DNA from: an uncultured Bacilli bacterium | GTDB lineage: Bacteria > Bacillota_I > Bacilli_A > RF39 > UBA660 | Length of the DNA stretch: 39,545 nucleotides | NCBI GenBank assembly: GCA_947628245.1 | Contig: CANQZH010000001.1 | Span: forward strand, 1-39,545 | Direction of reading: 5' to 3' | In this document: positions 15,833-32,588 of the stretch, one piece after another | Position numbering within the stretch: position 1 is the first letter of the stretch | How the letters are laid out: every line of letters begins with the position of its first letter | Made by a program: the position numbers and the translations under genes | The notes under the pieces: generated by a model | Database searches by the model: none | Told to the model about the DNA's origin: nothing | The model's input: the letters and a program-made list of their open reading frames with translations, nothing else

Positions 15833-15848
15833 TTACTTATCACCTCTA

Positions 15849-16079
15849 TCATTTAACTGATGTATCTTGTGGTGTACAATTTACAGTAACTACATTTCCA
15901 TCTTTATCTAAGGCACTACAAGAAGTACCCTCACAATGATAAGCAGATGAGCATAATGTTTGACGATTTAAATTATTTTTTATTGCAGGCCATATAAATG
16001 CATAGAAAAATGCTGCTATTGCTGCTATTGCTACTACAGTAATAACTGTTATATTTAATTCACCTGTCGCTTCTTTCAT
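15849..16079 (-). CDS. Flp-like small pilin, paralog 1 (76 aa, 4 Cys)
   Basis: It has a short leader ending in Gly, a ~25-aa hydrophobic helix and a small Cys-containing tail. A strong RBS (GGAGGGA) and a consensus-like promoter lie upstream. Confidence 0.6.
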   Translation of the reverse strand: MKEATGELNITVITVVAIAAIAAFFYAFIWPAIKNNLNRQTLCSSAYHCEGTSCSALDKDGNVVTVNCTPQDTSVK

Positions 16080-16139: not shown

Positions 16140-18605
16140 TTAAACTTTAAATATACATTTTTTTAAACTTTTTAAGTAAAATATAAATCCTATTATTCCT
16201 ATTAAAGAAAATATAACTCCAATTGTAAATCCTTTTATATGATAAACCATTTCTATTTTATGTTCTCCTTTAATTAGTTTTAACCCAATAATACTATCCT
16301 TAAACTTAAAATAATCAACCTTTTCACCATCTATTTTTATTTCAATTCCCTCATCATAAGGAATAGTTAAAACTAATAAATTTTTATCATCAGTTGCCGA
16401 TACATTACCACTAAATCCTCTAAAATTTATTTTAACTTCATTAATAATATTTGAATTTAAATCGTCAATTAGTAATTTAAATTTTTCTTCATTAATATAT
16501 TCTAATTTATTATCAAATTTAGGAGTTGAATTTTGACCCTCATTTAAAAATATTTCCAACTTAACTATATCACCTTTTTTTAAAGAATAAATATCTGAAA
16601 TTTCTTCATCATTTAAATATAATTTATATGTATCTTCATATTTAATTATTTTTTGAACATTTTTTTGATCATCTGTCGAGTATATTAAATAATTATTTAA
16701 CAAATTAATTTTACCAATAATATTTTCATTAATGTTATACATAAAAATTACTTTACCCTCCGTATTGCTATCATTTAATTCATAACAATTTTCTTTTTCA
16801 ATAACATTTTCTAATGTTATCACAGGCTCTAAACTTTTTAATTCTTTATTATTTATTAAATTATCTATAACATCAACATTTTGTTCAGATATTAAAAAGC
16901 CTAAACTATTTATAATATATTTATTAGTTAAATATTTATTTGTTGATTCATTTATAACATACTTAACTCCTAATAAAGCATCCATTAAAAAATGACTATT
17001 ATAATTTATTGAATGATTATATTCATTATTATCCCGAAAGTTATATAAAAAATTATTTAAATTATTATTGTATATTGATGAATATCTACCTACTCCATTA
17101 AAATTATATAATAATCCACCATTTTTATTTAAAGTAGTATGAATTCTTAGAAAATTATTATTATCTTGTAAATTATTTATTAAATTACTTATATCAATAA
17201 TTTTTTGACGATCTTCATTAACATAAGTATACCGATAATAAATATTTTGATAATTTACATTTATATTCATAATTATATTAATAGTTAATTCCAATATAAT
17301 TATAAAATAAGTAATAAAACGTAAATTAGAGTTATTATAATTAAAAAAATAGTAGATTATCATAAATAAATTTATAATAAAAAGCCAAATATAAATTTTA
17401 TCATTATCAAAATTATAATAAAAAGATTTATATAAAAATGAACATACCAGAAAAATAACTATTATTATCAATACTTTTTTAGAAATAACTTGATAATGTT
17501 TATCTTTTTTTATAAAAAAATTATAAGCTATTAAAACCCAAAAAGCATTAAAACAAAAAATAAATCTACTAGGTATACCAACTGGCTGTTGAAATAAATG
17601 CCATATATAATATAAAGGATATAAGAATAATGATAAAATATAAATAATAATAACAAATAATGTTGATTTTTTATATTGACGATTCATTTTAGAATAAAAA
17701 ATACTTATCATAACTAAAACAAACACGAACATCGATATATATAAATTTGCTGAATTTAATAAATTAACATTTTCTTTAACAGTTGTGCTCCCCATAAAAA
17801 AATTATATATTGATGGTAAAAATACATCATTAACTTGCCAAAAATTCACATCACTTAGATAAGAATTCCTTCCTTGAAACAAACTAAATATCGTAGGAAT
17901 TATGATATATGATGCTGTTAAACCACAAAATAAACTTGTTACAAAAAATTTAACTATTCTTTGTTTTTTTATTTTCTTTTCATAATTTGAATTATATAGC
18001 AAATAGAAAAAATAAATAACTGCAAAAATACAACACATATAAGCTGTATAATAATGAATTATAATCATATATGTTAAACATCCATAATACATTAAATTTT
18101 TATCATCATTTACTATTTTATCTATTCCAATCATTATTAATGGTAGTAAATACATAGCATCTAAAAACTGATAATTCCAGTAATAAAATGTTGCAAAACC
18201 TGACAAAGCATATATAGTTGAAAAAATTAATGTACTTTTACTTAATTTTTTCCTATAATTAAGTAAAATATTCATCGTTAACCCCATTAAACCAAATTTA
18301 ATTAAAGTTAAAATGACGAAAAATAAATCAAAATTTTCTTTTCTAAATAAAAAATATAATAAATTTAAAGGATTATTTAAATAAGTTGTAAAAATTGGAT
18401 AAAAACTTTCCCCTAATCCTATGTTAAAAGTAAAGATTTTAAAATTTCTTAATCCTTCAAAAAAAGCAGGATATTGCATTAAAGAATCAGAAAATCTTAA
18501 AGAAATATTTCCAAATGGATATATATTTAAACTAAATAAAGCAAAACTAAAAATTAAGATTGGTAATAAAAAAGCTATAGCATAATGAATAAAATTTTTC
18601 CTCAA
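16140..18605 (-). CDS. YfhO-family polytopic membrane glycosyltransferase (GT-C-like), 821 aa
   Basis: A large N-terminal block of more than 10 TM helices is followed by a ~300-aa extracytoplasmic region and a final TM helix, the layout of the B. subtilis YfhO / Listeria GtlB family. The TTG start overlaps the GT2 stop (TTGA). Confidence 0.65.
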   Translation of the reverse strand: MRKNFIHYAIAFLLPILIFSFALFSLNIYPFGNISLRFSDSLMQYPAFFEGLRNFKIFTFNIGLGESFYPIFTTYLNNPLNLLYFLFRKENFDLFFVILTLIKFGLMGLTMNILLNYRKKLSKSTLIFSTIYALSGFATFYYWNYQFLDAMYLLPLIMIGIDKIVNDDKNLMYYGCLTYMIIIHYYTAYMCCIFAVIYFFYLLYNSNYEKKIKKQRIVKFFVTSLFCGLTASYIIIPTIFSLFQGRNSYLSDVNFWQVNDVFLPSIYNFFMGSTTVKENVNLLNSANLYISMFVFVLVMISIFYSKMNRQYKKSTLFVIIIYILSLFLYPLYYIWHLFQQPVGIPSRFIFCFNAFWVLIAYNFFIKKDKHYQVISKKVLIIIVIFLVCSFLYKSFYYNFDNDKIYIWLFIINLFMIIYYFFNYNNSNLRFITYFIIILELTINIIMNINVNYQNIYYRYTYVNEDRQKIIDISNLINNLQDNNNFLRIHTTLNKNGGLLYNFNGVGRYSSIYNNNLNNFLYNFRDNNEYNHSINYNSHFLMDALLGVKYVINESTNKYLTNKYIINSLGFLISEQNVDVIDNLINNKELKSLEPVITLENVIEKENCYELNDSNTEGKVIFMYNINENIIGKINLLNNYLIYSTDDQKNVQKIIKYEDTYKLYLNDEEISDIYSLKKGDIVKLEIFLNEGQNSTPKFDNKLEYINEEKFKLLIDDLNSNIINEVKINFRGFSGNVSATDDKNLLVLTIPYDEGIEIKIDGEKVDYFKFKDSIIGLKLIKGEHKIEMVYHIKGFTIGVIFSLIGIIGFIFYLKSLKKCIFKV

Positions 18606-19555
18606 GTAACATCATCTTCTTTCTTGTCACTTTCTTTAATTATATATAATGGTCTTTTTTTAGTTTCTAAATAAATTTTAGAAATATATGCCGAACAAAT
18701 TCCTAAACAAAATAATTGAATACCTGAAACAAAGAAAATTATACATACTAATGATGGCCACCCACTAACTGGATCACCAAAAACTAATGTTTTAAAAATA
18801 ATAATTAAAATCATAATAAATGAAATAAGACAAAAAATAATTCCTAAAAAAGTTGAAATCATTAAAGGAACTGTCGAAAAGCCAATAATAGCATCAAAAG
18901 CATATAACATTAATTGCCAAAAACTCCATTTAGTTTTTCCGGCAACTCTTTTAACATTGTCATACGTAATCCATTTTGTATTAAATCCTAAATAACTAAA
19001 TAATCCTTTCGAATAACGATTATATTCTGGTATTGTTAATATTGCATCAGCAACTTCTCTTGTCATCAAGCGATAATCTCTTTCTCCAGATACCATTCTA
19101 ACTTTACTTATTTTAGCAATAAATTTATAAAAAGCTTCTGCTAAAAAACTCCTAATTATTGGTTCACCTTTACGATTTTTTCTTTTAGCTATAACTATAT
19201 CATATTTTTCTTTTACAATGCTTTTATACATTTCAATTAAAAGTTTTGGGGGATCTTGTAAATCTACATCCATAAAAGCTACATAATCACCATTTGCATA
19301 TCTTAATCCCGCTAATAAAGCAGCTTCTTTTCCAAAATTTTTAGAAAAAGACAAATAATGAATCCAGCTATTATCACTTTTCAATTTTTTTATGAAATTT
19401 AAAGTGTTATCCCGACTACCATCATCAACAAAAATTATTTCTAAATTTATCTTTTTTTCCTTAAATTTTTCATTAATTTTCATTATTTCTTTATAAAATA
19501 ATAATATACTATCTTCTTCATTAAAACATGGTACAATCACTGATATTTTTTGCAT
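18602..19555 (-). CDS. GT2-family polyprenyl-phosphate glycosyltransferase (CsbB/GtrB/DPM1-like)
   Basis: ISVIVPCFNEE, VDDGSRDNT and DVDLQDPP (DxD) are followed by two C-terminal TM helices, which is the GtrB/CsbB architecture. It is coupled to the yfhO-like gene. Confidence 0.8.
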   Translation of the reverse strand: MQKISVIVPCFNEEDSILLFYKEIMKINEKFKEKKINLEIIFVDDGSRDNTLNFIKKLKSDNSWIHYLSFSKNFGKEAALLAGLRYANGDYVAFMDVDLQDPPKLLIEMYKSIVKEKYDIVIAKRKNRKGEPIIRSFLAEAFYKFIAKISKVRMVSGERDYRLMTREVADAILTIPEYNRYSKGLFSYLGFNTKWITYDNVKRVAGKTKWSFWQLMLYAFDAIIGFSTVPLMISTFLGIIFCLISFIMILIIIFKTLVFGDPVSGWPSLVCIIFFVSGIQLFCLGICSAYISKIYLETKKRPLYIIKESDKKEDDVT

Positions 19556-19609: not shown

Positions 19610-19637
19610 GAAAAAAAGATAACCAAATTGATTATCT
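19610..19637 (-). terminator. Weak hairpin plus T-run after tadC (possible attenuating terminator)
   Basis: On the minus strand, AGATAA-tcaatttgg-TTATCT is followed by T7. The stem is only 6 bp and AT-rich, and it overlaps the tadC stop. Confidence 0.3.
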
Positions 19638-20424
19638 ACATACTCATCATCATTAATAAAGCAAATATTAACAAAATCATTACTCCAACTCCAGTTGCAA
19701 CTAACATTTGCATAGTTTTCTTTTCCATTTTCTCTAAACGTTCTTTATACTTTAATTCACGAGCCTTTTGTTGTAAATTAGAAATAGTTCTAGAAAATGC
19801 CAATAATTGTTCTTGTTTATGTTCTTGCCTTCCTAATGATAAACGATATAATAAACGCATCATTCTCATTGAATCTCTTACTGGATAAGTTTTAGCAAAA
19901 GTCATATAAGGATTTATTGAACTATCACCAGCATTAACTTCGTTTATTAATTGTTGCAAACCTTCTTTAAATATTCCTGGAGCATCATTAATAGATTTTC
20001 CTAGAGCAACTGGAACTGTATAATGTTGAATTAAGATTTCTAAACTTTTTAAATAATGAGGTAGCATCGCATCAATATCATGTAAATGCCTTTTATAATA
20101 ATTTTTCATATTACTATAGTCTAATTTAAAAACTAAATAACCAGCTAATAAAGAAAATAATACAGTTATATAAGTTAAATTAGAAATAAAGAAACATAAC
20201 ATAACAACAATAACAATTAATCCATTTTTAATTCTTTTGTTAAATAAGAAATCAGCATTAACGGTATCACCGTACCTTGCTTTTACATAAAAATCCCAAT
20301 CATTTTCTTTAAGTCTTTGAAAATATACTTCATTATCCGATACAAATCGATTAATACTTATTTTTCCTGTAAAATCAAGAGCAAAGAAAATTAGAATTGC
20401 TAAGCCAACAATCTCAAAATACAT
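19636..20424 (-). CDS. tadC: Tad platform protein, TadC-like (T2SS-F domain)
   Basis: It is a polytopic membrane protein with one N-terminal TM helix, a TM pair, a cytoplasmic helical domain and a C-terminal TM helix. There is a TAATG overlap with the tadB-like gene downstream of tadA. Confidence 0.6.
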   Translation of the reverse strand: MYFEIVGLAILIFFALDFTGKISINRFVSDNEVYFQRLKENDWDFYVKARYGDTVNADFLFNKRIKNGLIVIVVMLCFFISNLTYITVLFSLLAGYLVFKLDYSNMKNYYKRHLHDIDAMLPHYLKSLEILIQHYTVPVALGKSINDAPGIFKEGLQQLINEVNAGDSSINPYMTFAKTYPVRDSMRMMRLLYRLSLGRQEHKQEQLLAFSRTISNLQQKARELKYKERLEKMEKKTMQMLVATGVGVMILLIFALLMMMSM

Positions 20425-21320
20425 TACTCCACCCCCACATCTTCATAATAGAACCGTTCTCCTTTATATAGAAAGAAACAGTTAATCCATATAATACAAT
20501 GTAATATTAATTGAACATACCACATATCTAATAATTTAATGTAAGAGTCAGTACCAAGCAAAAATTGCATAGCCATAACTAATAAGAATAATGCTAGACC
20601 AAAAGTAACAAATCTTTTATGAAAATCAGCTCGATCAATTTGATCTCGATATACACCTTCAACTAAGGCATCAATATCCATTGATAAATTTTCCAAAGCT
20701 TCACCAGAATCCTTAGCACCTTCTTTAGTAATTTGTAAAAATAACTGATTCATATTTTTAACCATATAATATGGATATTTTTGATTAAAAAATTCAATAG
20801 ATTCATCAATAGTACCATTTTGATATGACATATCAATCATAGTTCTAACATCAGTTAATACGGGATCTTCTAATATACCAGAATCTCTAACACCTTCCAA
20901 AGATTTAACAAAACTTTGAGTAGTTGTAAATTCCATTATAACATTTGTAGTATATATTTGAATTTGTTCAAAAATAAATTCAGAATAAGCTTTTTGACAT
21001 CTTAAATAAGCAAGAAAAGGAATAAACAAAACTGCAACTCCAGCATAGATTAAAGCAATAATAATATTATAAAAATATAAATAAGAAATACCACCCGCAA
21101 CAACAGCAAAAACAACAACTTGAGTTAAATATTGCCTTGGAGTATATTCTTGTCCCAATTCTTTAACCTTTTCTCTTACTTGTTTAAAGCTATAAGGAGC
21201 ATATTTATCATAAGCATTAGCAACGCTTTTAGCAAAGAATTTATAAACATTTTCACCATTATTCATATAATATGAAACTGCAAAAACTGCAATGGCTATA
21301 ATAATTATTAATTCAATCAT
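20424..21320 (-). CDS. tadB: Tad platform protein, TadB-like (T2SS-F domain)
   Basis: It has the same topology class as tadC and lies immediately downstream of the TadA ATPase gene. Confidence 0.6.
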   Translation of the reverse strand: MIELIIIIAIAVFAVSYYMNNGENVYKFFAKSVANAYDKYAPYSFKQVREKVKELGQEYTPRQYLTQVVVFAVVAGGISYLYFYNIIIALIYAGVAVLFIPFLAYLRCQKAYSEFIFEQIQIYTTNVIMEFTTTQSFVKSLEGVRDSGILEDPVLTDVRTMIDMSYQNGTIDESIEFFNQKYPYYMVKNMNQLFLQITKEGAKDSGEALENLSMDIDALVEGVYRDQIDRADFHKRFVTFGLALFLLVMAMQFLLGTDSYIKLLDMWYVQLILHCIIWINCFFLYKGERFYYEDVGVE

Positions 21321-21334: not shown

Positions 21335-22432
21335 CTATAAAGTTTCTATAGTTGCAACATTAGTTGGCTTATTTTTTTCTTCAACAAATATATCATCTGG
21401 TAAAGTTACTCCCGATATTGATAAATACTCTCTTAAATGATTAGTTGGATTATTCATTGTAATTTCACCAGTTAAAGTCTTTTGAAAAATTGTATTTACT
21501 TGAGGTTTATTTTCTTCATCAACATAAAATTCACAAATTTCCATTATTTCTCTTTGATATCTACCTAATTCCTTACTCATATATCCTTTTACATAAATAC
21601 CAATTTGAACATATCGATGAATTGTTGATAAAAACTGTTCAACATCAACATTACTTTCAATTAAGGCAAACATACGCATTGGTATTAAACTTGCTTTATC
21701 AGAGTGAATTGTTGATAAAATATGGTGTCCTGAAGAAATACTATTACGAACAGCCATAACCGCTTCTGCACTACGAACCTCAGATAATAATATCCATATT
21801 GGATTTTGTCTCATACAAGTTACTAACACATCAGTATAACTAGCAATATTATTAGTTTTCATAGCAATAATATCACGATGAGGAAAAATTCGATCTAAAT
21901 GTAATTCCAAAGTATCCTCAATTGTAATAATTTTTTCATTTTCCTTAGTATGAGAAGCTAAATACTTTACCAATTCAGTTTTACCTGAACCAGTCTCTCC
22001 ACTTACTATTATATTAGCATGACCTTCAACACATTTTAATAAAAAATCAAGAAGACTAGCTGAAATATACTGTTCATTTAATAATTTTTCTCTATTCAAT
22101 CTAATTTTAGAAGGTGTTTTTCTTATTTGACAAGCAATACCATTAGTAGCAATAGAATCGTGAATAAAATTTAAACGCAATTCAGCACTTTCAGCATCTA
22201 AAAAAGGATGAGCCATATTGAAAGTTTTACCCATAACATTTGCACATTGGAAAGCTAATTTTTCTAATAAAGCATTATTAATCTCCGGTCTTTCAACTTG
22301 ATATGAACCTTTATCTAAAGATTTTAGCCATACTTGTCCATTATTACAAATAGATATATCGGTAATATTTTCTTCTCTCAAAAACTCATCTATTGGACCA
22401 AAATCCAGTTGTGAAAATATCGCGTCGTTCAC
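21335..22432 (-). CDS. tadA: TadA/CpaF-family secretion ATPase (T2SS-E / VirB11-like)
   Basis: It has Walker A SGETGSGKTELVKYL, an Asp box (IITIEDTLEL), Walker B WILLSEVRSAEA and a His box GHHILSTIHS. Confidence 0.85.
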   Translation of the reverse strand: MNDAIFSQLDFGPIDEFLREENITDISICNNGQVWLKSLDKGSYQVERPEINNALLEKLAFQCANVMGKTFNMAHPFLDAESAELRLNFIHDSIATNGIACQIRKTPSKIRLNREKLLNEQYISASLLDFLLKCVEGHANIIVSGETGSGKTELVKYLASHTKENEKIITIEDTLELHLDRIFPHRDIIAMKTNNIASYTDVLVTCMRQNPIWILLSEVRSAEAVMAVRNSISSGHHILSTIHSDKASLIPMRMFALIESNVDVEQFLSTIHRYVQIGIYVKGYMSKELGRYQREIMEICEFYVDEENKPQVNTIFQKTLTGEITMNNPTNHLREYLSISGVTLPDDIFVEEKNKPTNVATIETL

Positions 22433-22461: not shown

Positions 22462-23304
22462 TTAATCATTATTATTATCATTGTTATTATTATTGTTGCT
22501 ACTTGTACTAGTTGAAATATTTTCATCTGGTATAACTTCAGTTTTAGATAAAATAAATTCTTTAACATAATCACTAGCAACTTCAGTTTCTCCAGGATTT
22601 GCTGTATAGTTCTTATTTCTTGGAACTGGTACTATTTCAACATTATACCCAGATAAATATTGAGCTTTTTTTAGTAATGAATACATATCATCAGGTACTG
22701 CAAATAATAAATCTGATGGTGTTCTTGCTTCACCAGATGTTTCAAATACTGATTTACCCTGTGAATCACGAACATCTAATACTTTAATACTACTAATTAA
22801 ATTAGTATACATTAATCGATTATAATCATTAGTTCCTTTAAACCATAAATCAATATAGTTTCCAGGGAATATTGAGTTACCATATGTAGTATGTAAATCT
22901 ACTGGTAAAGAAAATAATGTATAACCATTAGGAATATCAGCTGTAACACTATCAGGTTGTGTTTCAGGTGAAACAACTGTTTCCGTATAGAAGAAACTAT
23001 TTTGAGGAATAGTCGTTCCATACATAACTTCCTTACCAATTAATTGATTAGCATTTCTAATCATATTACTACTTTTACTCAATACTGTGCTAGAAACTTC
23101 CATAAAGCCAATATCATCATCAGTTATAACATGTCTAGAAGCTAAAGTCGTTTTAGCATATGGAATAGTTGTTGGATTAATAGCATTATTAACCCTCCAA
23201 GTATATCCTAAATACAAAACCAAAATACCAATAACAACACATATAATTGTTACCGTATTCTTATTACTTAAAAATTTCTTTAAATTAGCTCCAATATTTC
23301 CCAT
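22462..23304 (-). CDS. CpaB/RcpC-like pilus assembly protein (N-terminal TM, SAF-like domain) with a poly-Asn C-terminal tail
   Basis: The TM helix is VTIICVVIGILVLYLGY. AKTTLASRHVITDDDIGFMEVSS...LIGKEVMYGTTIPQNSFF matches the SAF/CpaB pattern. The tail is STSTSSNNNNNNDNNND. Confidence 0.55.
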   Translation of the reverse strand: MGNIGANLKKFLSNKNTVTIICVVIGILVLYLGYTWRVNNAINPTTIPYAKTTLASRHVITDDDIGFMEVSSTVLSKSSNMIRNANQLIGKEVMYGTTIPQNSFFYTETVVSPETQPDSVTADIPNGYTLFSLPVDLHTTYGNSIFPGNYIDLWFKGTNDYNRLMYTNLISSIKVLDVRDSQGKSVFETSGEARTPSDLLFAVPDDMYSLLKKAQYLSGYNVEIVPVPRNKNYTANPGETEVASDYVKEFILSKTEVIPDENISTSTSSNNNNNNDNNND

Positions 23305-23321: not shown

Positions 23322-23729
23322 CTAATCATTAGAATTCATTTCTAATAATGCATCTACTCTATTTACAATATCAAAAGTTTCTGTACTAGAATTAATTTGA
23401 TAAGTATTACTTTTAGATGTAACTTCCACACTTACTTTTGGTGGAGCTTCATAAAGATTATAAAAGTTAACTGTACTAGTTCCCGTAGGAATACTTTCAG
23501 ATAATCTTCTTAAAAAATTTTCCACAAATTTTTCTTTATTAATTCTTAATTCTCCACTTTCACGGTAGTAGCCATAATCGACAGCGTCGATCATAGCTGC
23601 TTCCGAAATTTCTTTTAATACATAATAATCTTGAGTATTCGTCGTAGAAACATTAGAAATTAACATCATTATAACAATTACTCCAACACCTAACGCAATT
23701 ATCCAATATCCCCAAAAAGATTCTTTCAT
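23322..23729 (-). CDS. 135-aa protein with a pilin-like N-terminus (cassette B, third gene)
   Basis: The N-terminus is MKESFWG-YWIIALGVGVIVIMMLISNV, followed by a ~105-aa domain. It is a paralog of 27925..28332. Confidence 0.6.
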   Translation of the reverse strand: MKESFWGYWIIALGVGVIVIMMLISNVSTTNTQDYYVLKEISEAAMIDAVDYGYYRESGELRINKEKFVENFLRRLSESIPTGTSTVNFYNLYEAPPKVSVEVTSKSNTYQINSSTETFDIVNRVDALLEMNSND

Positions 23730-23739
23730 TTTTTACCTC

Positions 23740-26700
23740 CTATTTCCAAGATGGTCCAATTCCATCTTTTCTACTTAATACACAATTACCATTAGTTACA
23801 CAATATTTAGAATCTAACCATAAAGTAAAATCAGGTCTTTCAACATTCGAAGTAAAATATTTATTAGAATTACTATTTAAGAAAGTACTACGACATTTAA
23901 CACTATATTCAATACCAGTATTTGGATCAACATATCTTTCACATTTCAAAGCATTTTCTCCAGCATTTTCTTCACCTTCAGGAATAGTAGTATTAGCATA
24001 TGTCTGAGCTTTTTCATTATATGACCTTATATTTGCTTTTTGTTGTTGAGTTATTGTATACGAATATTCTGGATTTTCATAGGCATCTTCACCTAACTCT
24101 TCAATATCATTCTTAGTAGTTTGAGCTTTTAAAGTTTGCCAATTGTATCCAGCATTTCGACAATCACTTTGATTTTCAATAGTACAAGAATTAGGGAATA
24201 AATCATTTAATGTTACAGTTCTAAACTTATAAGTTGTATTATTACCATCAAAGATACAAGTCTTACAATTAACTTCACATTCACCATCACATTCTTCGTG
24301 AATAGTACAATTATCGCCCTCACAACCAACTTCACATTCATCACAGTTATTAACATAAGCACATACATATCCAGCTTCCTGAGTTAATGTACTATTATTA
24401 CCAGTATTTCCACATTTTTTCTCTTGTGGTAACTTATTATATTCAGTTAATACACTAATATTATCACCAGAACTTACTAATCTACCTAATGCATCACTAC
24501 TATTTGATTGACCAATATTACTAAATTTCAAGACAAATGGGAATGCTCCCTTACCAGTTCTAAGTTCAACTGGTAATGCATCAGCAGGTAATCTAGTCCA
24601 TAAGCACTCAGTAAAACTTGTACCTTCGCAAATAGTTCCGCTCTTTACTGTACCATATTGATGGTATGTACTAAAGCTTTGATTTGGAATATAAGTACCA
24701 GCCATTGTCTTAGTCTTTTGAATCCATTTAGCTTGGCTAACAATAGTTTCAGCATTTCGACAACCATTACTATCACAAACAGTATAAGTTAAATTTTTAT
24801 ATAAACCACTAGGAGCAGCACTATTATTTGAAACTAAAGCACCACTTAAACATCTATATTGATTATCAGTATCACCTAAACAATAAGTATCTGAAGTTAC
24901 TGTTGAAACACTGCCACTTAGAGCAAATTTACCATTAGATATTTTAGCATATTCTTCTTCATGATAAGTAAAATTAACCTCTGGACTAAACTTCATACTA
25001 TTTTGCCATCCAGTTGAACAAGCATTGTATTCAGCAATAGTTTCTTGCATTTCATTATTTAAAGCAACTAATTTATTATAATTATCCTCACTCTTATCAG
25101 CATTCCATCTATTATAAGCATTAGTAACTTTTTCATTTATCTTTTTAATATCATCCTCAAATAGCTCAGTATCAATTGGTTTATCAGGATTTTCAGCAGA
25201 ACTTACATAACAATTTCTTGTTCCACTTATTTTAGTAGATAAAGTAAAGTAACCACCACTTGTTGAATATCTAGCTGTTGGTACTGAAAATTGATAATCT
25301 TCATCACACCAAACTTTACAATAACGATTATTTTTCAACTCATTAACAGCTTCATATGAAGTACCAGTCTGATCATTAGCATCTATTACACATTGTTTTA
25401 CAGGATTAACCGTTTCATTACAATCAGACTTAACTTTATTAATATCACTTATTGTACCTGTAATCTCACTTTCAGTATTAAAATTATTACACGTTCCAGG
25501 TACTGAAACAGTTGCATTACAATTTGGACATTTTTCAGCATATTCATCACAAGCTGGATCTTTCGGATTTTGTTCACACTTATCCTTTAATGGTGGACAA
25601 TAACAATCATCTAAGTATTCTCTTTCACTACATTGTTGGCCACCTTGATCTTCAACTTTCTCATTGCAATAATAAACATTATCATCATTTTGATCAGGAG
25701 TTTCACAAATATGTAAACATTGTTTACGATATTTAGCTCTAGTAGTAGCTTTACCATCATTACCATAATATGTTTTATTACCAGCAGCATCATACTCAAT
25801 ACTACAAGAATTAGTACATTTATCAGGACAACCTAATGAACCAACTCTTGGATCATCTTTAAGAACTTTTTCAGTAGAAACATTACCATCAGGAGAAGTT
25901 GTAGATAAAATATAATTTCCTGTATATTTACCATTTACCTCTTCACATACACATTCATTTGTAGGAGGAAGTTTTAACTCAGTTTGAATTAAGAAAGAAG
26001 GACTATAATTCTTAATTACTAACATTCTTTGTTCTGTTTTAAGATTAGGTGGATCGACAACAAACATATTTGCTGTTGGATTTCTATTATCCCTAAATGC
26101 TGTCTTAATTCTAATACCATATTTTTGATCAGCACTTGGTTTACCATTTTTTGTATTAATTCTAACAGTATATCTACCTTTATATCCCCCATTAGGATCA
26201 GCTATTTTTTTCTCAGTAATATCATCTTTGCCATTACAAGTATAACCATTCTCGCAAGTTATTTGAAATTGTTTCCATTTAATTTCTTCAGGCGCATGCC
26301 CATTTTTAGCACTTATATCAAATTTAATAGTAACATAATCGCCTTCTAATTTAGTATTAACAATACTAATATCCCAAGCATCTTCCCAAATAGTTCCATT
26401 TTTTACTAATTGTTCATATGTGGTTTTTTTATTCTTAATTTTATCTCCAACTTTAACAGCATCTTCAGCAATTTTTAAAGCAGCTTTAACAGCAGAATTA
26501 CTTAAATTCCAAAAGCTTCTATTTCTTCTATTTTCCCATAAATACTTACGGTTTTCAACACTACTACCATTACGATTAACATCAAGTTTTCCATAATAAG
26601 CTTCAATCCATCTAAAAACTAAAGTTCCTATCATTCTAACTTGGGCAGATTGTTTACCTCCATCATAATATTTACTTTTTATCATTTGTTGATAAGCATA

Positions 26701-27051
26701 AGTTGCAGCAACATCAGATGCTTGATATGAGCCTTTCTTTTGAGGTGAAATAACTCTTTCACACACGTGACTTTTTTCAATCATATCCTTAGCAGGAGCT
26801 AAACAATATGATTGACCATATAATTCACCATTTTTAGTAATGTTATAAAAATTAATATGTGATCCTGTCGCGTCACTAGAACCAACATGATCTAATCTAA
26901 CATACTTTTCAGGACATTTAGGTTCTTCAGAAGTAACAGCAGCAGTTACATTAAAAAATGTATACTCTTTTTCTTCTGCTTTAACAACATTAACATTAAT
27001 TAATAAAATAAATACATATAAAGTAAATAATACTTTCAAAACTTTTTTCAT
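23740..27051 (-). CDS. 1103-aa secreted Cys-rich protein (cassette B, second gene); no family recognised
   Basis: The Sec signal is MKKVLKVLFTLYVFILLINVNVVKA-EE. I hand-counted about 49 Cys. There is no LPXTG or C-terminal TM helix. It is a paralog of 28344..31766 with conserved Cys positions. Confidence 0.8.
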   Translation of the reverse strand: MKKVLKVLFTLYVFILLINVNVVKAEEKEYTFFNVTAAVTSEEPKCPEKYVRLDHVGSSDATGSHINFYNITKNGELYGQSYCLAPAKDMIEKSHVCERVISPQKKGSYQASDVAATYAYQQMIKSKYYDGGKQSAQVRMIGTLVFRWIEAYYGKLDVNRNGSSVENRKYLWENRRNRSFWNLSNSAVKAALKIAEDAVKVGDKIKNKKTTYEQLVKNGTIWEDAWDISIVNTKLEGDYVTIKFDISAKNGHAPEEIKWKQFQITCENGYTCNGKDDITEKKIADPNGGYKGRYTVRINTKNGKPSADQKYGIRIKTAFRDNRNPTANMFVVDPPNLKTEQRMLVIKNYSPSFLIQTELKLPPTNECVCEEVNGKYTGNYILSTTSPDGNVSTEKVLKDDPRVGSLGCPDKCTNSCSIEYDAAGNKTYYGNDGKATTRAKYRKQCLHICETPDQNDDNVYYCNEKVEDQGGQQCSEREYLDDCYCPPLKDKCEQNPKDPACDEYAEKCPNCNATVSVPGTCNNFNTESEITGTISDINKVKSDCNETVNPVKQCVIDANDQTGTSYEAVNELKNNRYCKVWCDEDYQFSVPTARYSTSGGYFTLSTKISGTRNCYVSSAENPDKPIDTELFEDDIKKINEKVTNAYNRWNADKSEDNYNKLVALNNEMQETIAEYNACSTGWQNSMKFSPEVNFTYHEEEYAKISNGKFALSGSVSTVTSDTYCLGDTDNQYRCLSGALVSNNSAAPSGLYKNLTYTVCDSNGCRNAETIVSQAKWIQKTKTMAGTYIPNQSFSTYHQYGTVKSGTICEGTSFTECLWTRLPADALPVELRTGKGAFPFVLKFSNIGQSNSSDALGRLVSSGDNISVLTEYNKLPQEKKCGNTGNNSTLTQEAGYVCAYVNNCDECEVGCEGDNCTIHEECDGECEVNCKTCIFDGNNTTYKFRTVTLNDLFPNSCTIENQSDCRNAGYNWQTLKAQTTKNDIEELGEDAYENPEYSYTITQQQKANIRSYNEKAQTYANTTIPEGEENAGENALKCERYVDPNTGIEYSVKCRSTFLNSNSNKYFTSNVERPDFTLWLDSKYCVTNGNCVLSRKDGIGPSWK

Positions 27052-27053
27052 TT

Positions 27054-27815
27054 TTATCTTCCCTCTATATTTTGCTTAAAACCAATTTGTTTTTTTCGAT
27101 ATCTAATTATAGCAACAATAACAATTGCAATTACCAATACCCCTACAATAATAATTTCAATATTTAAAATATTTTTTTTATTACTTTCTTCTTCATTTTC
27201 TTTTTTTGTTTCACTATCATTTTTTTTACTTTCTTGTGATTCTAAATATTCACCATAAGCTGTCTCACCATCTATTTCACTAGTTACATATTCTTGGCAA
27301 TAATAACTATCATTATTTTCACAATACAAATATGAAGAATTTTGATTATACATTGGTGTTTTTAATTCAACTGTTCTTAATTCTTGATTAATACAATCTG
27401 AAACAGCTGAATATATTATTAATTTATAAGTTCTAATTTTAATAGTATCAGGTACTTCATAAGTTATTGTTCCATTTTTAGTATCATTATAATGATACTC
27501 TTTATTTAAACCATCATCAAGATTTTGTAAAACAACATATATCTTATCAGTAACGTTTTCTATTTTAATTGTAACTTTATCCTCCATAAGATATTCACTT
27601 AATTCACCTTCTTCAACACTTGAAGGTGAAACTTCAGGATGAAGAACTCCATTTCTATCATACACAACTGTATCAATGTTGTAATTAAATGTAACATTCG
27701 ATGAAACTGTATTAATTTCAAGTTGAGTTTTATTATCACATTCTGCTTTTACCTTTCCTATCGAAAACATTGTCATTATACATAATAGTAACAAATAAGC
27801 TTTTTCTTTTTTCAT
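27054..27815 (-). CDS. ~253-aa type I membrane protein (cassette B, first gene): signal peptide, beta-rich ectodomain with 4 Cys, acidic/Lys linker, C-terminal TM helix
   Basis: The ORF track starts at 27842, but a near-consensus -10 abuts that ATG. I therefore prefer the ATG at 27815 (MKKEKAYLLLLCIMTMFSIGKVKA-ECDNK), which has GGTGA 7 nt upstream. The C-terminal TM helix is IIIVGVLVIAIVIVAII, followed by RYRKK. Confidence 0.65.
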   Translation of the reverse strand: MKKEKAYLLLLCIMTMFSIGKVKAECDNKTQLEINTVSSNVTFNYNIDTVVYDRNGVLHPEVSPSSVEEGELSEYLMEDKVTIKIENVTDKIYVVLQNLDDGLNKEYHYNDTKNGTITYEVPDTIKIRTYKLIIYSAVSDCINQELRTVELKTPMYNQNSSYLYCENNDSYYCQEYVTSEIDGETAYGEYLESQESKKNDSETKKENEEESNKKNILNIEIIIVGVLVIAIVIVAIIRYRKKQIGFKQNIEGR

Positions 27816-27842
27816 TAATTTCACCAACCCATTTATACTCAT

Positions 27843-27871
27843 ATTCTACCAAATTATCATATCATTTTCAA
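27843..27871 (-). promoter_or_regulatory. SigA-type promoter of cassette B (TG-extended -10)
   Basis: On the minus strand, TTGAAA (27871..27866), a 17-nt spacer and TGgTAGAAT (-10 at 27848..27843). Confidence 0.55.
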
Positions 27872-27900
27872 TCATTTTATTTAAAATTTTTAGATATAAA

Positions 27901-27927
27901 AAAAAGAGTGAAAAATAACTCACTCTA
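27901..27927 (-). terminator. Rho-independent terminator after cassette A
   Basis: On the minus strand, AGAGTG-agttattttt-CACTCT is followed by a T-run. It overlaps the stop of the 135-aa gene at 27925. Confidence 0.45.
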
Positions 27928-28332
27928 ACTATTTGAATCTAACTCTAATATAGCATCTACTCTATTAACTATATCAAAACTTTCAACATTAGAATTTAAC
28001 TGATAAGTATTACTTTTTGTTATAACTTGAACACTAGCTTTTGGAGGAGATTCATAAATACTATAAAAATCAATTTGATAAGTACTTAAAGATACATTTT
28101 CTGCAAATCTTCTTAAAAAATTTTCTACAAATTTTTCTTTATTTATTCTTAACTCTCCACTTTCACGATAATAACCATAATCTACAGCATCTACCATTGC
28201 CGCTTCAGATATTTCTTTTAAAACATAATAATCTTGAGTATTAGTTGCTGAAACATTAGATATTAGCATCATAACTATTATAACTCCAACACCTAAAACT
28301 ATTAACCAATAGCCCCAATAAGATTCTTTCAT
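27925..28332 (-). CDS. 135-aa protein with a pilin-like N-terminus (cassette A, third gene)
   Basis: The N-terminus is MKESYWG-YWLIVLGVGVIIVMMLISNV. The first ~75 aa are almost identical to 23322..23729. Confidence 0.6.
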   Translation of the reverse strand: MKESYWGYWLIVLGVGVIIVMMLISNVSATNTQDYYVLKEISEAAMVDAVDYGYYRESGELRINKEKFVENFLRRFAENVSLSTYQIDFYSIYESPPKASVQVITKSNTYQLNSNVESFDIVNRVDAILELDSNS

Positions 28333-28343
28333 CTTTTAACCTC

Positions 28344-31300
28344 CTATTTCCAAGATGGTCCAATTCCATCAGTCCTACTTAAACAATTACCTAATGGACA
28401 ATAATCAGTTTCAGTCCATAATTTAAATCCACTAGCATTTCTTGCAAGTTGAGTAAAATATTTACCAGTATTTTCATTTAAGAAAGTACTTACACATTTA
28501 ACACTGTAATCTAAACCATTATAATTTTTCTTTTTACACTGATAAGCATCAGTCCCATCTTCCATTGTCGTATTTTCATATGTACCTACGTCTTTATTAT
28601 ATTGTCTTATAGCCATTAATTGACTAGCAGTTACTAAATAAGAATACTCAGGAGTTTCATAAACACCATTACCATTACCTTCAATATCATTTTTAGTAAC
28701 CTGTGCTTTTAAAGTTTGCCAATTATAACCTTCTTTTCGACAATTTACACTATTAGTTTCACAAGAATTAGGGAATAAATTATTTAATGAAACAGTTCTA
28801 AATTTATATGTCGTATTTTCTCCATCAAATATACAAGTCTTACAAGACACTGGACAATCACCTTCACAAGTTTCATGAATAGAACAACTATCTCCCTCAC
28901 ATCCAACACTACAAGAATCACAATTATTAACATAAGCACAAACATAACCAGCTTCTTGTTCAAATATTCCTCTTGGATTTTCACACTGAGCAACATCAGA
29001 AGTAACATAAGCATTTAATACACTATTGCTTCTTCCAATTAATCTTCCTAATGAATTATCAATATTTGATTGACCAATATTTGCAAATGAAAGAACAAAC
29101 TTAAAGGCACCTTTACCAGTTTTAAGTTCAACCGGTAAAGCATCATCTGGAAGTCTAGTCCATAAACAACTATCATAACCAGTTACCGAACATACAGAAC
29201 CAGTTTTAACTGTTCCATATTGATGATAAGTATTAAAATTTTGACCTGGAGTAAAATTACCCGATTTAGTTACTGTTTTTTGAATCCAATTTGCAAGATT
29301 AATTCCAAAACTATTCCACGTACAAGTACTTTCATTACAACTAATATATTGATAAATAGAACCAGTCATCGGTGGTGTAGAATAAGATGTTCCAATACAA
29401 TTATATTGACTATTTATATTACCAACACAATAATTTACCGAACTACTAACACTTGGGTCTCCAACCATTTTAAATGTACCAGCTCTTGTATCATAACCAT
29501 AATCATCATAATTAAAGTTAATTGCCGGATTAAAATTCAAATCAGAATCAGGCATATTAACCCAATTAGAACAAGCTTGATAATTACTAACATATAATTG
29601 AATATTAGTATTAGTTCTTTCATACAAACTTCTACTCTTACTTTCTTGATCAATAATTTCATTTTTAGACATCTCAACTTGTTCACCACTTACAACATTA
29701 CTATGACTAGCATCAGTTATTTGAAGATAATTTGCACAAGTATATTTCTTATCTTCATCACTAGCTGGATCACTTCCTGTACCAGCAAGACAAGCTCTCC
29801 ATTTACTCCATTCATTCCAATATCTTAATAAATCAACATTTAAAGCAGAAATTTCATTAATAAATTCCGTACTATTAATACCTTCAGTTGGATCATCAGC
29901 AGAAGCCGTATAACAATTTCTTGTTCCGGTAATCGCAGCATTTAAAGTGAAATATCCACCACTAGTAGAATATCTTGCAGTTGGAACTGTAAATTGATAA
30001 TTTTCATCACAATATACTTTACAATATCTATTTCCATTCATAAGTTTCTTAGCTTCAAAACTTTCACCAGACATATCATTTTTACCTAGAACACACATCT
30101 TAACATTATTAGCACTATTATTACAAGCTGTCTTAGCTGGATTTATATCATAGAAATAACCACCAACAGATGAATTAACATCAAAATCATTACAACTATT
30201 TGGAATTGATGAACTAGCTCGACAATTAGGACATTTTTCTTCGTACTCAGCACAATCAGGATCACTAGGATTAGCAGTACATTTTTCTTTTCTAGGTGTA
30301 CAATAACATTCTTCAATATATTCTTGACCATTACATACCCTACCGCTATTATCAGTTCCTGGATCAGCACAATAATAAAGACCTTCTTCATTATCACTAG
30401 GAGTTTCACAAATATGTAAACATTGGCTCTTATATGTAGCTTGATCAACAATATTACTACTTCCATCATCAGTATCTTTACCATAATAAGTTACAGTACC
30501 ATCAGGATTTACAATTCTCTCACATTCATAATCTTCGGTATCACCGCAAGGAGGGCAATTATAAGTAGCAAAATTTGGATCAGTATTGTCAACAATTGCA
30601 CTTGTTGTTACTCCATTTGTAGTAGTATATAAAATATATCTACCAGTATAATTATTAGAATCATCTGCTTCACAAACACAAGAAGTAGTTGGTTCAAATG
30701 GAATTTCCCTTTGTATTTGAAACGTTTTACTATAATTTTTAACTAAAATAAATTTTTGATAACTTGCATGGTTTGTTGGTTTATATATCATTATATGAGC
30801 ATTTGGATTTTTTATATCACCATAGCTTACTGTAACTTTAGCAAGATTATATTTTTCGTTCCATTTACCCTTCGTCTTTTGAATAGTTATATTAAAAGTT
30901 CCACTTCTATTTTTATTACTACTAACTAAACTACTACTAACTAATTTATTATTATCATTTTTAGTTTCGAATTTAAAACTTCCCCAATTGACTACACTAG
31001 GAGCTTTTACAGGATTTTTAGGAGCTATCGTAACATTTAAAACTACATTATTTTTATCATCAGGACCAGTAACACTATTAATTGTTGAAATCCACTCATC
31101 AGTCCATATTACTCCAGCATCAACTAATTGTTGATAAGTTTTCTTACCCTTTAAAATATAATCACCATATTTTACAGCATCCTTAACTAAAGATAAAGCA
31201 GCTTTAACCTCGGATGTATCTTGATACCAATATGTTGTACTATTTCGGCTTTTATAAGAGAAAATATTAAATTTATAATCATTATCTCCAATTGACTCTA

Positions 31301-31766
31301 AATAACCATATCGTGACGCAATCCATCTAAATGCCATCGTTCCAATTAAACTACTTCTTCTTCTACCACTACTCTCCGTATTTGAAATATATTTATTAGC
31401 AATCATTAATTGATAAGCTCTCGTAATTGCTACATCAAAAGCTTGCCTATTAAGGCTAGATGAATTTTCAGGATTAATTTCTCTAACACAAGTATGTTGT
31501 CCGTTATTAAAATCAGATGTAGCCCCAGGTTTAAAACAAAAAGCTTGACCATAAGCCCCTGTATTACTTGAAGCCTTTTTTTTAGTAGTAAACATATTAT
31601 AAAAATTAATAACATCTTTTTTACAATGTGATCTATCTACCCCAACATGATGCAAATATAAATAAGTGTATTGGCAACCTCCATCAGAAATATTTTTTCC
31701 CTCTGCTTTTACTACACTTAAAAAACAAAATAATAAGATAAAACTATATATTATTTTTTTAAACAT
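28344..31766 (-). CDS. 1140-aa secreted Cys-rich protein (cassette A, second gene); no family recognised
   Basis: The Sec signal is MFKKIIYSFILLFCFLSVVKA-EG. I hand-counted about 50 Cys. It ends ...DGIGPSWK like its paralog, and has no wall-sorting signal. Confidence 0.8.
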   Translation of the reverse strand: MFKKIIYSFILLFCFLSVVKAEGKNISDGGCQYTYLYLHHVGVDRSHCKKDVINFYNMFTTKKKASSNTGAYGQAFCFKPGATSDFNNGQHTCVREINPENSSSLNRQAFDVAITRAYQLMIANKYISNTESSGRRRSSLIGTMAFRWIASRYGYLESIGDNDYKFNIFSYKSRNSTTYWYQDTSEVKAALSLVKDAVKYGDYILKGKKTYQQLVDAGVIWTDEWISTINSVTGPDDKNNVVLNVTIAPKNPVKAPSVVNWGSFKFETKNDNNKLVSSSLVSSNKNRSGTFNITIQKTKGKWNEKYNLAKVTVSYGDIKNPNAHIMIYKPTNHASYQKFILVKNYSKTFQIQREIPFEPTTSCVCEADDSNNYTGRYILYTTTNGVTTSAIVDNTDPNFATYNCPPCGDTEDYECERIVNPDGTVTYYGKDTDDGSSNIVDQATYKSQCLHICETPSDNEEGLYYCADPGTDNSGRVCNGQEYIEECYCTPRKEKCTANPSDPDCAEYEEKCPNCRASSSIPNSCNDFDVNSSVGGYFYDINPAKTACNNSANNVKMCVLGKNDMSGESFEAKKLMNGNRYCKVYCDENYQFTVPTARYSTSGGYFTLNAAITGTRNCYTASADDPTEGINSTEFINEISALNVDLLRYWNEWSKWRACLAGTGSDPASDEDKKYTCANYLQITDASHSNVVSGEQVEMSKNEIIDQESKSRSLYERTNTNIQLYVSNYQACSNWVNMPDSDLNFNPAINFNYDDYGYDTRAGTFKMVGDPSVSSSVNYCVGNINSQYNCIGTSYSTPPMTGSIYQYISCNESTCTWNSFGINLANWIQKTVTKSGNFTPGQNFNTYHQYGTVKTGSVCSVTGYDSCLWTRLPDDALPVELKTGKGAFKFVLSFANIGQSNIDNSLGRLIGRSNSVLNAYVTSDVAQCENPRGIFEQEAGYVCAYVNNCDSCSVGCEGDSCSIHETCEGDCPVSCKTCIFDGENTTYKFRTVSLNNLFPNSCETNSVNCRKEGYNWQTLKAQVTKNDIEGNGNGVYETPEYSYLVTASQLMAIRQYNKDVGTYENTTMEDGTDAYQCKKKNYNGLDYSVKCVSTFLNENTGKYFTQLARNASGFKLWTETDYCPLGNCLSRTDGIGPSWK

Positions 31767-32536
31767 TATACTCCCCTCATACTTTCCATCTCTTTAGTTC
31801 TTTTTCTTCTCTTAAAAATACTAACAATAATTATAACTAACAATATAAAAATAATCACAATCCCAACAGAATATAATATTATATTTTTAGAATTATCTTC
31901 TTTATTATTTTGAGTAGGATTTTCTTCTTCATCAGGCGTTTCCATATTTTTCATATACTCGTCTAATAAACGTCTATATTCACTTTCACTTATACTAACA
32001 TCAGTTGTAACATATTTATTACAATAACTAGCATTATTATTTTGACAAACACCTTCTTCAAAATAATCATTATACTTAGGTGTTGCAACTTCTATTTTCC
32101 TTAATTCTTCCGTTTCACAATCCAAAGACTCTGAAAAAATTGTCAAAGTATAATGTCTAATATTTAAAGTATCAGGAACATCATAAATAAGAGAGCCATC
32201 TTCTAAATCTTTATAATGATATTCTTTATTAATGTTATCCTCGGCACTATATAAAGCAACATACACTTTATCAGTAACATTACTAATTTTAAGCACAACC
32301 CTTTCATCTAATTGATAAGATGAAGTTTCAGAAATTTCAATATCACTAGGATTCAATTCCCGATGAATATTACCATCAATATCAAAAACAAACGTTTCAA
32401 TTTCATAATCCATAGTAACATTAGAAGCAGCCGTACTAAGTTCTAATCGAGCTTTACTATCACATACAGCATTAACTTTATTAATAAAACCAAACAAAAC
32501 AAGTAAAAATAACAAATATCTGCCTGTGTTTTTCAT
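31766..32536 (-). CDS. ~256-aa type I membrane protein (cassette A, first gene)
   Basis: The ORF-track start (TTG at 32569) lies inside the predicted -10 element. I prefer the ATG at 32536 (MKNTGRYLLFLLVLFGFINKVNA-VCDSK). The C-terminal TM helix is ILYSVGIVIIFILLVIIIVSIF, followed by KRRKR. There is a TAATG overlap with the 1140-aa gene. Confidence 0.65.
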   Translation of the reverse strand: MKNTGRYLLFLLVLFGFINKVNAVCDSKARLELSTAASNVTMDYEIETFVFDIDGNIHRELNPSDIEISETSSYQLDERVVLKISNVTDKVYVALYSAEDNINKEYHYKDLEDGSLIYDVPDTLNIRHYTLTIFSESLDCETEELRKIEVATPKYNDYFEEGVCQNNNASYCNKYVTTDVSISESEYRRLLDEYMKNMETPDEEENPTQNNKEDNSKNIILYSVGIVIIFILLVIIIVSIFKRRKRTKEMESMRGV

Positions 32537-32559
32537 ATTACCATTCCTATCTTTAGTTA

Positions 32560-32588
32560 AATATACCAAAAATAAATAATTAATTCAA
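32560..32588 (-). promoter_or_regulatory. SigA-type promoter of cassette A (TG-extended -10)
   Basis: On the minus strand, TTGAAT (32588..32583), a 17-nt spacer and TGgTATATT (-10 at 32565..32560). The layout matches the cassette B promoter. Confidence 0.5.

Follow-up and report, generated by a model that had tools for sequence, protein, structure and literature searches.

Tandem three-gene cassettes heading a Tad-like operon in an uncultured gut Bacilli bacterium: candidate exchangeable pilus-tip modules

Context embedding has classed a DUF5411-containing operon of Clostridia as 'secretion-related' (Miller et al. 2022, Nat Commun, PMC9523054). Here we analyze a 39,545-nt stretch of DNA, referred to as the window, from an uncultured Bacilli bacterium (GenBank assembly GCA_947628245.1, contig CANQZH010000001.1, positions 1 to 39,545), in which a comparable operon on the minus strand opens with two tandem copies of a three-gene cassette. 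Each cassette encodes an anchor-like protein, a giant Cys-rich protein and a 135-aa DUF5411 protein. Like the window operon, the clostridial one is known computationally and combines a CpaF-type ATPase, a PilC/GspF-like membrane protein, DUF5411 and a large protein described as surface or 'invasion'-like. That study deals with Roseburia, Ruminococcus and Eubacterium and mentions an internalin-like protein, whereas the window comes from uncultured low-GC gut Bacilli, its large protein is Cys-rich and devoid of Pfam domains, and its head trio is tandemly duplicated. We propose, with a probability of about one in two and from sequence comparison, that the trios are exchangeable pilus-tip adhesin modules on a Tad-like operon, with DUF5411 as a pilin-like adaptor.

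Variable pilus tips have been described in Myxococcus xanthus, whose Kil system uses Tad (type IVc) pili with interchangeable minor-pilin tip complexes (PMC12075869). Both loci have a Tad-type ATPase machine, and in both, alternative gene sets are proposed to put variable domains at the pilus tip. The Kil tips, however, are TadE/F/G-like minor-pilin complexes of a diderm predator and need an apparatus like a type III secretion system, whereas the variable element of the window, known from genes alone, is a separate Sec-exported protein of ~1100 aa together with an anchor and DUF5411, in a monoderm. A large non-pilin protein at a pilus tip is also familiar from type IVa pili, where PilY1/PilC is thought to be held by the minor-pilin complex through a conserved C-terminal docking part, its N-terminal part being variable. 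PilY1 is a beta-propeller protein of diderms, and we know of no sequence or fold relationship between it and the giants.

Two thioester adhesins complete the comparison. Cpa of Streptococcus pyogenes is the thioester tip adhesin of sortase-assembled pili (cited in PMC6194298). In a covalent version of our proposal, the giants would resemble it as pilus-tip adhesins that attach through a Cys-Gln thioester; sortase and isopeptide bonds link Cpa to its pilus, whereas the giants have no LPXTG motif and their filament is of the type IV class. The second, TIEpLS20, is encoded by the Bacillus subtilis plasmid pLS20. It is an adhesin with a class II thioester domain (TED); conjugation in liquid medium depends on it, and it has no sortase anchoring (PMC8092201).

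The conjugation operon of pLS20 (NC_015148) has, between 6477 and 12971, genes for the validated TED adhesin (TED_2 28.8 bits, TED 23.6 bits), two small open reading frames (ORFs), a DUF5411 relative, a TadA-like ATPase, two membrane proteins and a 120-aa protein that is minor-pilin-like and DUF4320-like. The DUF5411 relative (126 aa, 9446-9826) is distant, with a Pfam E-value of 1.4e-5 that lies below the cutoff and an hhalign value of 55% over 109 columns. The ATPase is 32% identical to that of the window (E 3e-39), and the two membrane proteins are co-linear with those of the window, without significant similarity (probabilities 11% and 3%). A large Sec-exported adhesin, a DUF5411-like protein, an ATPase and two membrane proteins thus follow each other in the same order in both, and this gene order independently supports the view that the gene in the giant position encodes an adhesin working with DUF5411 and the ATPase machine. 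The TIEpLS20 motifs YC(I/L)DP and YQ(R/K)(L/M) also resemble those of the giants. On the other hand, the conjugative plasmid pLS20 encodes VirD4 and a relaxase, whereas the window locus is chromosomal and has neither relaxase nor VirB4, VirD4 or transfer genes. In addition, TIEpLS20 has 767 aa, a single Cys in its predicted TED and CnaB-type stalk domains (PMC8092201), unlike the giants, whose homology to its TED has no statistical support. By analogy with the window, TIEpLS20 could possibly be presented by a Tad-like apparatus.

What is already known, then, is the DUF5411 operon type, flagged in Clostridia (PMC9523054), and the existence of exchangeable Tad tips in Myxococcus (PMC12075869). 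What is new is that the head trio is defined as a unit, that the giant family is shown to be large and modular in architecture and that giant and anchor co-evolve rapidly; new are also the tandem, probably separately transcribed cassettes, the Cys/Gln lead presented below and the synteny with pLS20.

Two diverged cassettes at the head of the operon

The six minus-strand ORFs between 23322 and 32569 form two tandem trios, each in the order anchor-like protein, giant, DUF5411, and together they are the 5' head of a long minus-strand Tad-like type IV filament operon. The distal trio consists of Anc1 (31766..32536), Gi1 (28344..31766; 1140 aa, 51 Cys) and D1 (27925..28332), and the proximal one of Anc2 (27054..27815), Gi2 (23740..27051; 1103 aa, 49 Cys) and D2 (23322..23729). 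An earlier note, written from the sequence alone, had described three pairs of paralogues in identical order and orientation, and BLASTP bears this out: the giants are 41% identical from end to end (810 bits, E 0), the 135-aa proteins 76% (E 3e-82) and the anchor-like proteins 44% (E 2e-57). The same note had held that the giants keep essentially all of their Cys residues, that they share long identical peptides, and that the 135-aa proteins are alike early and diverged later. Indeed, 46 Cys are aligned between Gi1 and Gi2, all four of the quoted peptides are present, and the 135-aa pair differs at 7 of the first 75 residues and at 25 of the last 60.

The genes within each cassette are tightly joined, as had been noticed before, by a TAATG overlap or a 2-nt gap and then by an 11-nt gap with GGAGGT. 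For the anchor genes, starts at 32536 and 27815 (internal ATG) fit the promoter-like sites and signal peptides better than the mechanical ORF starts at 32569 (TTG) for Anc1 and 27842 (ATG) for Anc2. At the DNA level the cassettes are direct repeats spaced ~4.6 kb apart and 60-92% identical, with the highest conservation (92%) at the junction between the giant stop and the DUF5411 start.

Between the two copies, the proportion of synonymous differences (pS) is 0.47-0.52 and the synonymous distance (dS) 0.75-0.88, so that synonymous sites, rightly described earlier as heavily diverged, are near saturation in this genome of 26% GC. DUF5411 has a ratio of nonsynonymous to synonymous distance (dN/dS) of 0.15, whereas the giants reach 0.67 and the anchors 0.71. 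Over the initial 45 codons of the DUF5411 genes, pS is 0.59 and the nonsynonymous proportion (pN) 0.06, which points to purifying selection and not to recent gene conversion; conversion as the origin of the conserved 5' half was rejected on this value of pS. We likewise rejected an assembly artefact or a recent duplication, given the 60-80% nucleotide identity, the saturated synonymous sites and the orthologues of the proximal copy in other metagenome-assembled genomes (MAGs). The near-saturated dS and the trees agree with an old duplication kept by selection, as first suggested.

To place the cassettes among relatives, we scanned one genome per species and obtained 16 loci with a giant gene; five further contigs (L025-L029) were reached separately, through DUF5411 or through distant giants. 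The 16 loci are all from MAGs, of rabbit, mouse and other origin, that belong to uncultured gut Bacilli, Erysipelotrichaceae or 'Tenericutes'. In 15 of them, as far as the contigs reach, the order is anchor, giant, DUF5411, CpaB-like protein, ATPase, platform proteins, pilins, minor pilins and 345-aa protein, and the same head trio is found in the five more distant contigs; the order from trio to machinery is seen in L009-L016, L019 and L021-L029. The earlier note had supposed that the three products probably act together, and had named a lack of linkage to tad genes in other genomes as evidence against this. The trio precedes the CpaB, ATPase and platform genes in 15 of the 16 genome loci and in all five contigs, so this linkage is clearly present. 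Relatives of the anchor occupy the same position in the loci that reach far enough upstream.

Giant and anchor diverge much faster than the machinery. Identity to the window across these loci is 83-95% for the ATPase and 67-91% for DUF5411, compared with 23-67% for the giants and 27-68% for the anchors. No part of the operon evolves faster than the head trio, which is therefore the likeliest to contact the host or neighbouring cells. The anchor and giant trees are congruent. In them, the distal copy of the window branches outside a clade of proximal copies from six other species; consequently, the duplication, or the lateral gain of the second cassette, predates the separation of those species. 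A second locus, L015, has two cassettes on one contig, DUF5411 being duplicated with each, and L020 together with L012, from the same MAG, suggests a third two-cassette case that was split by the assembly. In L020, anchor and giant are read as a single ORF up to the contig end (9026-12763).

The DUF5411 tree has a different shape. D1 groups with the proximal DUF5411 proteins of L010, L011, L012 and L014, the giants of which group with Gi2, and the two DUF5411 copies of L015 are each other's nearest relatives. These discordant groupings of DUF5411 and giant suggest that cassettes have recombined or undergone conversion, the breakpoints lying close to the giant/DUF5411 junction.

A consensus scan of the minus strand placed a promoter-like site upstream of each cassette. 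The distal one (TTGAAT-17-TATATT with TG, 32560..32588) lies within the 112-nt divergent region shared by Anc1 and a CAAX protease gene, and the proximal one (TTGAAA-17-TAGAAT with TG, 27843..27871) stands ahead of Anc2; the two-cassette locus L015 has a similar site before its proximal anchor gene. Between the cassettes, a terminator-like hairpin with an 8-bp stem and a U8 tract begins at the D1 stop codon (27905..27926, minus strand). It folds at -14.3 kcal/mol (z -3.15), and 1 of 200 shuffled sequences folds as well. This arrangement suggests that the distal cassette may be an independent transcription unit and that the proximal one may be read with the machinery. An invertible promoter or phase-variation switch was considered and rejected; the inverted repeats found were AT-rich chance ones only.

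Proteins of the trio

The earlier note stated that none of the three proteins matches a family that can be named. This was wrong, since the 135-aa protein is a member of Pfam DUF5411 (PF17424; D1, E 2.9e-55, 186 bits; D2, E 1.4e-53). Where the gathering threshold asks for 30 bits, the two proteins score 181 and 186, over model positions 1-133 of 134. The family comprises more than 2000 clusters at 90% identity, and its members have a mean identity of 65% with invariant M1, E3, W6, G7 and Y8. Their N-terminus reads MKES(F/Y)WG followed by YW…, with the invariant G7 and a hydrophobic stretch at 8-27. The first 20 residues (MKESYWGYWL…) align without gaps and in register with the two minor-pilin-like proteins of the operon (MREAIGGTWL… and MRQSTGSIWL…). 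In an AlphaFold2 (AF2) model of D2, with a mean predicted local distance difference test score (pLDDT) of 75, a helix spanning residues 3-48 is followed by a helix, three strands and a further helix. The long helix with its small beta head and the N-terminal motif in register with the minor pilins agree with the pilin-like shape that had been assumed for this protein. In L022, the DUF5411 domain forms the N-terminus of a 485-aa ORF (9083-10540).

Anc1 is predicted to have a signal peptide (…KVNA/VCD), an ectodomain of ~170 aa with 4 Cys, an acidic linker, a C-terminal transmembrane (TM) segment and a basic tail; Anc2 is its paralogue. The predicted Sec signal peptide, TM segment and basic tail justify calling these proteins anchor-like, as had been done before. 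The ectodomain opens with a conserved (A/V)CD…(L/V)E(I/L)(N/S)T motif, and against Pfam Anc1 gave no significant match, merely weak ones to TM regions.

Both giants carry a signal peptide and no TM segment, and their C-terminus is soluble: each ends …DGIGPSWK, of which …GIGPSWK is invariant. Having no LPXTG near the C-terminus and no TM segment, they do not qualify as sortase-anchored proteins of the TIE/MSCRAMM type. Sequence searches with the window giants gave no match to Pfam, NCBIfam, PHROG or chains in the Protein Data Bank (PDB), profile searches against PDB chains gave nothing, and no toxin domain was detected with Pfam, NCBIfam or PHROG. We rejected a phage or plasmid origin, because the giant has no PHROG match and no tblastn match in phage or plasmid collections; the PHROG scan of the cassette and adjacent operon proteins gave no phage family either.

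Nevertheless, the giants belong to a large family. An exhaustive profile search retrieved 580 cluster representatives at E <= 1e-3, of which 292 at E <= 1e-30, correcting a word-based homologue search that had understated the family with just 7 giants and 11 anchors. Distant relatives mostly match profile positions ~500-1154 alone. A search of the protein collection returned both DUF5411 copies of the window but not the window's own giants. Five regions can be distinguished in Gi2: a variable N-terminal module (61-360), which contains the C83/Q341 pair, a Cys-rich linker (361-520), a conserved core (521-625), a variable helical hairpin and beta region (626-790) and a conserved C-terminal core (791-1103). 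Identity between Gi1 and Gi2 follows this division, with 34% over Gi2 61-360, 56% over 521-625, 25-30% over 626-790 and 62% over 791-1103. In general, the C-terminal ~600 aa are conserved and the N-terminal half is variable.

Forty family members were scanned for known domains. One (P0131) has an NlpC/P60 domain, and another (P0224) a near-threshold TED. P0131 (L028, 2104-6648) is a close relative of 1514 aa in the same operon context; its peptidoglycan-hydrolase-like insertion occupies residues 739-825, at a site corresponding to the variable helical hairpin of the window giants. Among named database entries, the giant and the proximal DUF5411 protein have one relative each (P0001/P0015; WP_281512650.1 and WP_281512651.1), both deposited as Mammaliicoccus vitulinus. 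These share 71% and 90% identity with their window counterparts and lie on a 6.8-kb contig, which looks like contamination by a lineage of gut Bacilli and not like a staphylococcal locus.

The TED lead comes from P0224, which scores 21.8 bits against Pfam TED (cutoff 22), in a match that starts at IAYCLDP. Its C137, P140 and Q421 align with C83, P86 and Q341 of Gi2 (N-terminal BLAST E 2e-9). A comparison of 17 giants showed C83 and P86 to be invariant and Q341 to be present in at least 90%; the motifs around them are [YF]C(L/M/F/I)xP and, for most members, [YF]Q(K/R)(M/F)(L/I). Published TED motifs are [YFL]C-hydrophobic-hydrophilic and hydrophobic-Q-hydrophilic-hydrophobic-hydrophobic (PMC6194298). 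The former is represented by FCFK in Gi1, YCLA in Gi2 and YCLD in L019, L023, L025 and P0224, and the latter by YQKFI in Gi1, EQRML in Gi2 and FQRMI in P0224. A class II TED would fit the predicted secondary structure, which consists of a hairpin that ends at C83, helices, and a block of six or seven strands (226-320) before Q341. However, Cys and Gln are 258 residues apart in the giants, compared with 171-204 in solved class II TEDs (PMC6194298), and the TQxx-hydrophobic-W motif of TED helix 2 is absent, the giants having GT(L/M)(V/T)FRW, without Gln, ~60 residues after the Cys. The AF2 model of the N-terminal module (pLDDT 30-70) is unreliable. We regard a thioester domain in this module as a lead and not as a finding; it may exist, with the odds leaning against it.

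A proposed tip module and its alternatives

How would the trio work? Our model suggests that DUF5411 enters the filament as a minor pilin and serves as an adaptor, and that the conserved C-terminal half of the giant docks on DUF5411, on the two minor pilins or on both. The variable N-terminal half would then be exposed at the pilus tip and bind a ligand of the host, of mucus or of other bacteria, perhaps covalently through the thioester-like Cys83-Gln341 pair. The anchor would hold or chaperone the giant at the membrane before loading. The two cassettes would provide alternative tips, the proximal one co-transcribed with the machinery and the distal one apparently equipped with its own promoter and terminator. 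We consider doubtful a more specific version in which the giants are covalent thioester adhesins, handed sortase-free to the Tad-like filament through the DUF5411 adaptor and the membrane partner, the same module serves in pLS20-type conjugation, and gut Bacilli stack such cassettes as independently transcribed, exchangeable tips. If it were true, Gram-positive mating-pair adhesins would be pilus-presented.

The locus matters for several reasons. The type IV filaments of gut Firmicutes have barely been studied, and this operon type is widespread, as judged from the more than 2000 DUF5411 clusters and from one variant that occurs on hundreds of contigs. The giants form a large protein family (580 representative clusters) that is without annotation. 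Should they be pilus-presented adhesins, possibly covalent ones, they would offer a route to understanding the attachment of uncultured gut Bacilli, and the parallel with pLS20 is relevant to the display of a conjugation adhesin without sortase in Gram-positives. Finally, with its tandem and apparently separately transcribed cassettes the locus suggests a strategy of tip switching, to which the Kil tips of Myxococcus can be compared.

A number of results count against the tip-adhesin proposal. On the side of the adaptor, the D2 model gave no significant pilin match with Foldseek against the PDB (best E 0.1; PilA4 E 0.53), and the hhalign alignment of DUF5411 with the minor pilins covers 20 columns only, with a probability of 17%. 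On the side of the giant, the AF2 model is poor (pLDDT 50, from a 9-sequence alignment) and its Foldseek matches are meaningless (TM-score < 0.1). The covalent variant suffers in addition from the fact that neither Gi1 nor Gi2 matches Pfam TED (PF08341 / PF20610), that profiles of the giant N-terminus found no TED among PDB chains, and that hhalign against a purpose-built alignment of nine plasmid (pLS20-type) TEDs returned 14 columns around the Cys with a probability of 2.6%. As for the machinery, the operon proteins gave no Pfam or NCBIfam match to T2SSF, Flp pilin, TadE/F or TadZ, the minor pilins and the 345-aa protein had no PDB match, and neither the window nor the 10-kb flanks of related loci contain a gene for a prepilin peptidase (A24). 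Promoter and terminator were called from patterns that occur at chance density, and the total number of promoter sites is not above shuffle expectation. Lastly, one locus breaks the synteny: in L017 (2266-7062), uvrA comes next after an anchor-giant pair, and neither DUF5411 nor tad genes adjoin the pair.

Several other explanations compete for the same data. The giant could be a secretion substrate, with DUF5411 and the minor pilins forming the pseudopilus of a type II secretion-like piston that pushes it through the wall as a released effector or enzyme. Such a role would be in line with the 'secretion-related' class given to this operon type (PMC9523054), with giants that have Sec signals and no signal for wall or membrane anchoring, and with the hydrolase insertion in one relative. 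However, the three small pilin genes together with the two minor pilins suggest a real filament, Sec export already crosses the only membrane of a monoderm, and a paired membrane anchor and a docking-like conserved C-terminal half favour display over release. We think this explanation unlikely.

Does the trio need the pilus at all? The anchor could tether the giant on the cell body, for example through disulfides between the conserved Cys found in both the anchor ectodomain and the giant, while DUF5411 would be a core assembly factor that was duplicated as a passenger. The congruence of the anchor and giant trees, from which the DUF5411 tree differs, the L017 pair that lacks DUF5411, and the conservation of DUF5411, which resembles that of a machine part, would all follow from this arrangement. 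Harder to reconcile with it are the duplication of DUF5411 with each cassette in both the window and L015, the giant-DUF5411 junction, which is translationally tight and the best-conserved repeat DNA (92%), and the fact that the trio heads the pilus operon even in very distant lineages. A complex independent of the pilus therefore appears rather improbable to us, and display on the filament remains our preferred reading.

Contact-dependent antagonism has less in its favour. Here a Kil-like pilus would deliver the giant as a weapon against neighbouring bacteria, and duplicate cassettes would widen the range of prey, as one might imagine from the interchangeable minor-pilin complexes of the Kil tips (PMC12075869), the NlpC/P60 insertion in P0131 and the fast evolution of giants and anchors. 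But a lytic domain was found in just 1 of the 40 family members scanned, no immunity-like gene is evident, and the window giants have no detected toxin domain, all of which makes a weapon quite improbable. Least probable is a wall-spanning giant acting as a peptidoglycan channel or collar for the filament, a functional stand-in for secretin: the giant is always present, always beside the CpaB-like gene, and its C-terminal half is conserved with invariant Cys, but a hypervariable half with a dN/dS of ~0.7, two divergent copies per machine and accessory domains in relatives are not expected of a core channel.

Remaining operon genes and flanking regions

Downstream of the cassettes, on the same strand, a CpaB/RcpC-like pilus assembly protein (22462..23304) starts 17 nt after D2. 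Its matches are below threshold, with 27.9 bits against Pfam RcpC (cutoff 28.8; E 2.3e-6) and 33.6 bits against TIGR03177 (cutoff 71; E 2.4e-8). Next comes a secretion ATPase of the TadA/CpaF/VirB11/FlaI type (21335..22432; Pfam T2SSE, 88.7 bits), for which CpaF, VirB11 and FlaI score equally among PDB chains (~2e-16). Two polytopic membrane proteins of 298 and 262 aa (19636..21320) occupy the position of the TadB/TadC platform, to which they are assigned from position and conservation. Three tandem small pilin paralogues of 76-78 aa (15349..16079; MKEA(T/S)GELN…) are conserved in related loci; their N-terminal halves are near-identical, their C-terminal parts differ and they contain 4 to 7 Cys. 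None of the three matched Pfam, whether Flp or another pilin family. They are followed by the genes for the two minor-pilin-like proteins of 157 and 162 aa (14360..15330) and, at the 3' end of the operon, by that for the conserved 345-aa protein (13311..14348), which is TadZ-like by position only; its identification as TadZ was dropped, as neither PDB nor Pfam supports it. Taken together, the operon would work like a Tad pilus but is no canonical member, the platform, pilin and TadZ roles being assigned by position and topology only.

A variable part of the operon lies between the platform genes and the pilins, where genes for a family 2 glycosyltransferase (GT2) and a YfhO-family membrane protein are inserted (16140..19555, minus strand). 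Of the related loci, L009, L011 (at another position) and L014 have the pair, and L012, L013 and L016 lack it. In Bacillus and Listeria, GT2 and YfhO proteins form a pair that glycosylates teichoic acids; here they may glycosylate pilins or giants.

The locus is chromosomal and lies between pcrA and murE, with pcrA and ligA following the gene of the 345-aa protein. On the other side, a CAAX/Rce1-like intramembrane protease and a metallophosphoesterase are encoded divergently from the operon head (32682-34233, plus strand). These two genes also adjoin the operon head in L016, L019-L025 and L029, even in distant lineages, and L029 adds a PedC-like thioredoxin. The protease and the thioredoxin could possibly help to process the Cys-rich products or to form their disulfides, and the protease/metallophosphoesterase neighbourhood may also be plain chromosomal synteny.

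Finally, a 153-aa ORF near the start of the window (400-861, minus strand) ends …NPWPWDNKGGSMYV. It resembles what we take to be the spore-coat protein CotJB, which hints that the organism is a spore former.

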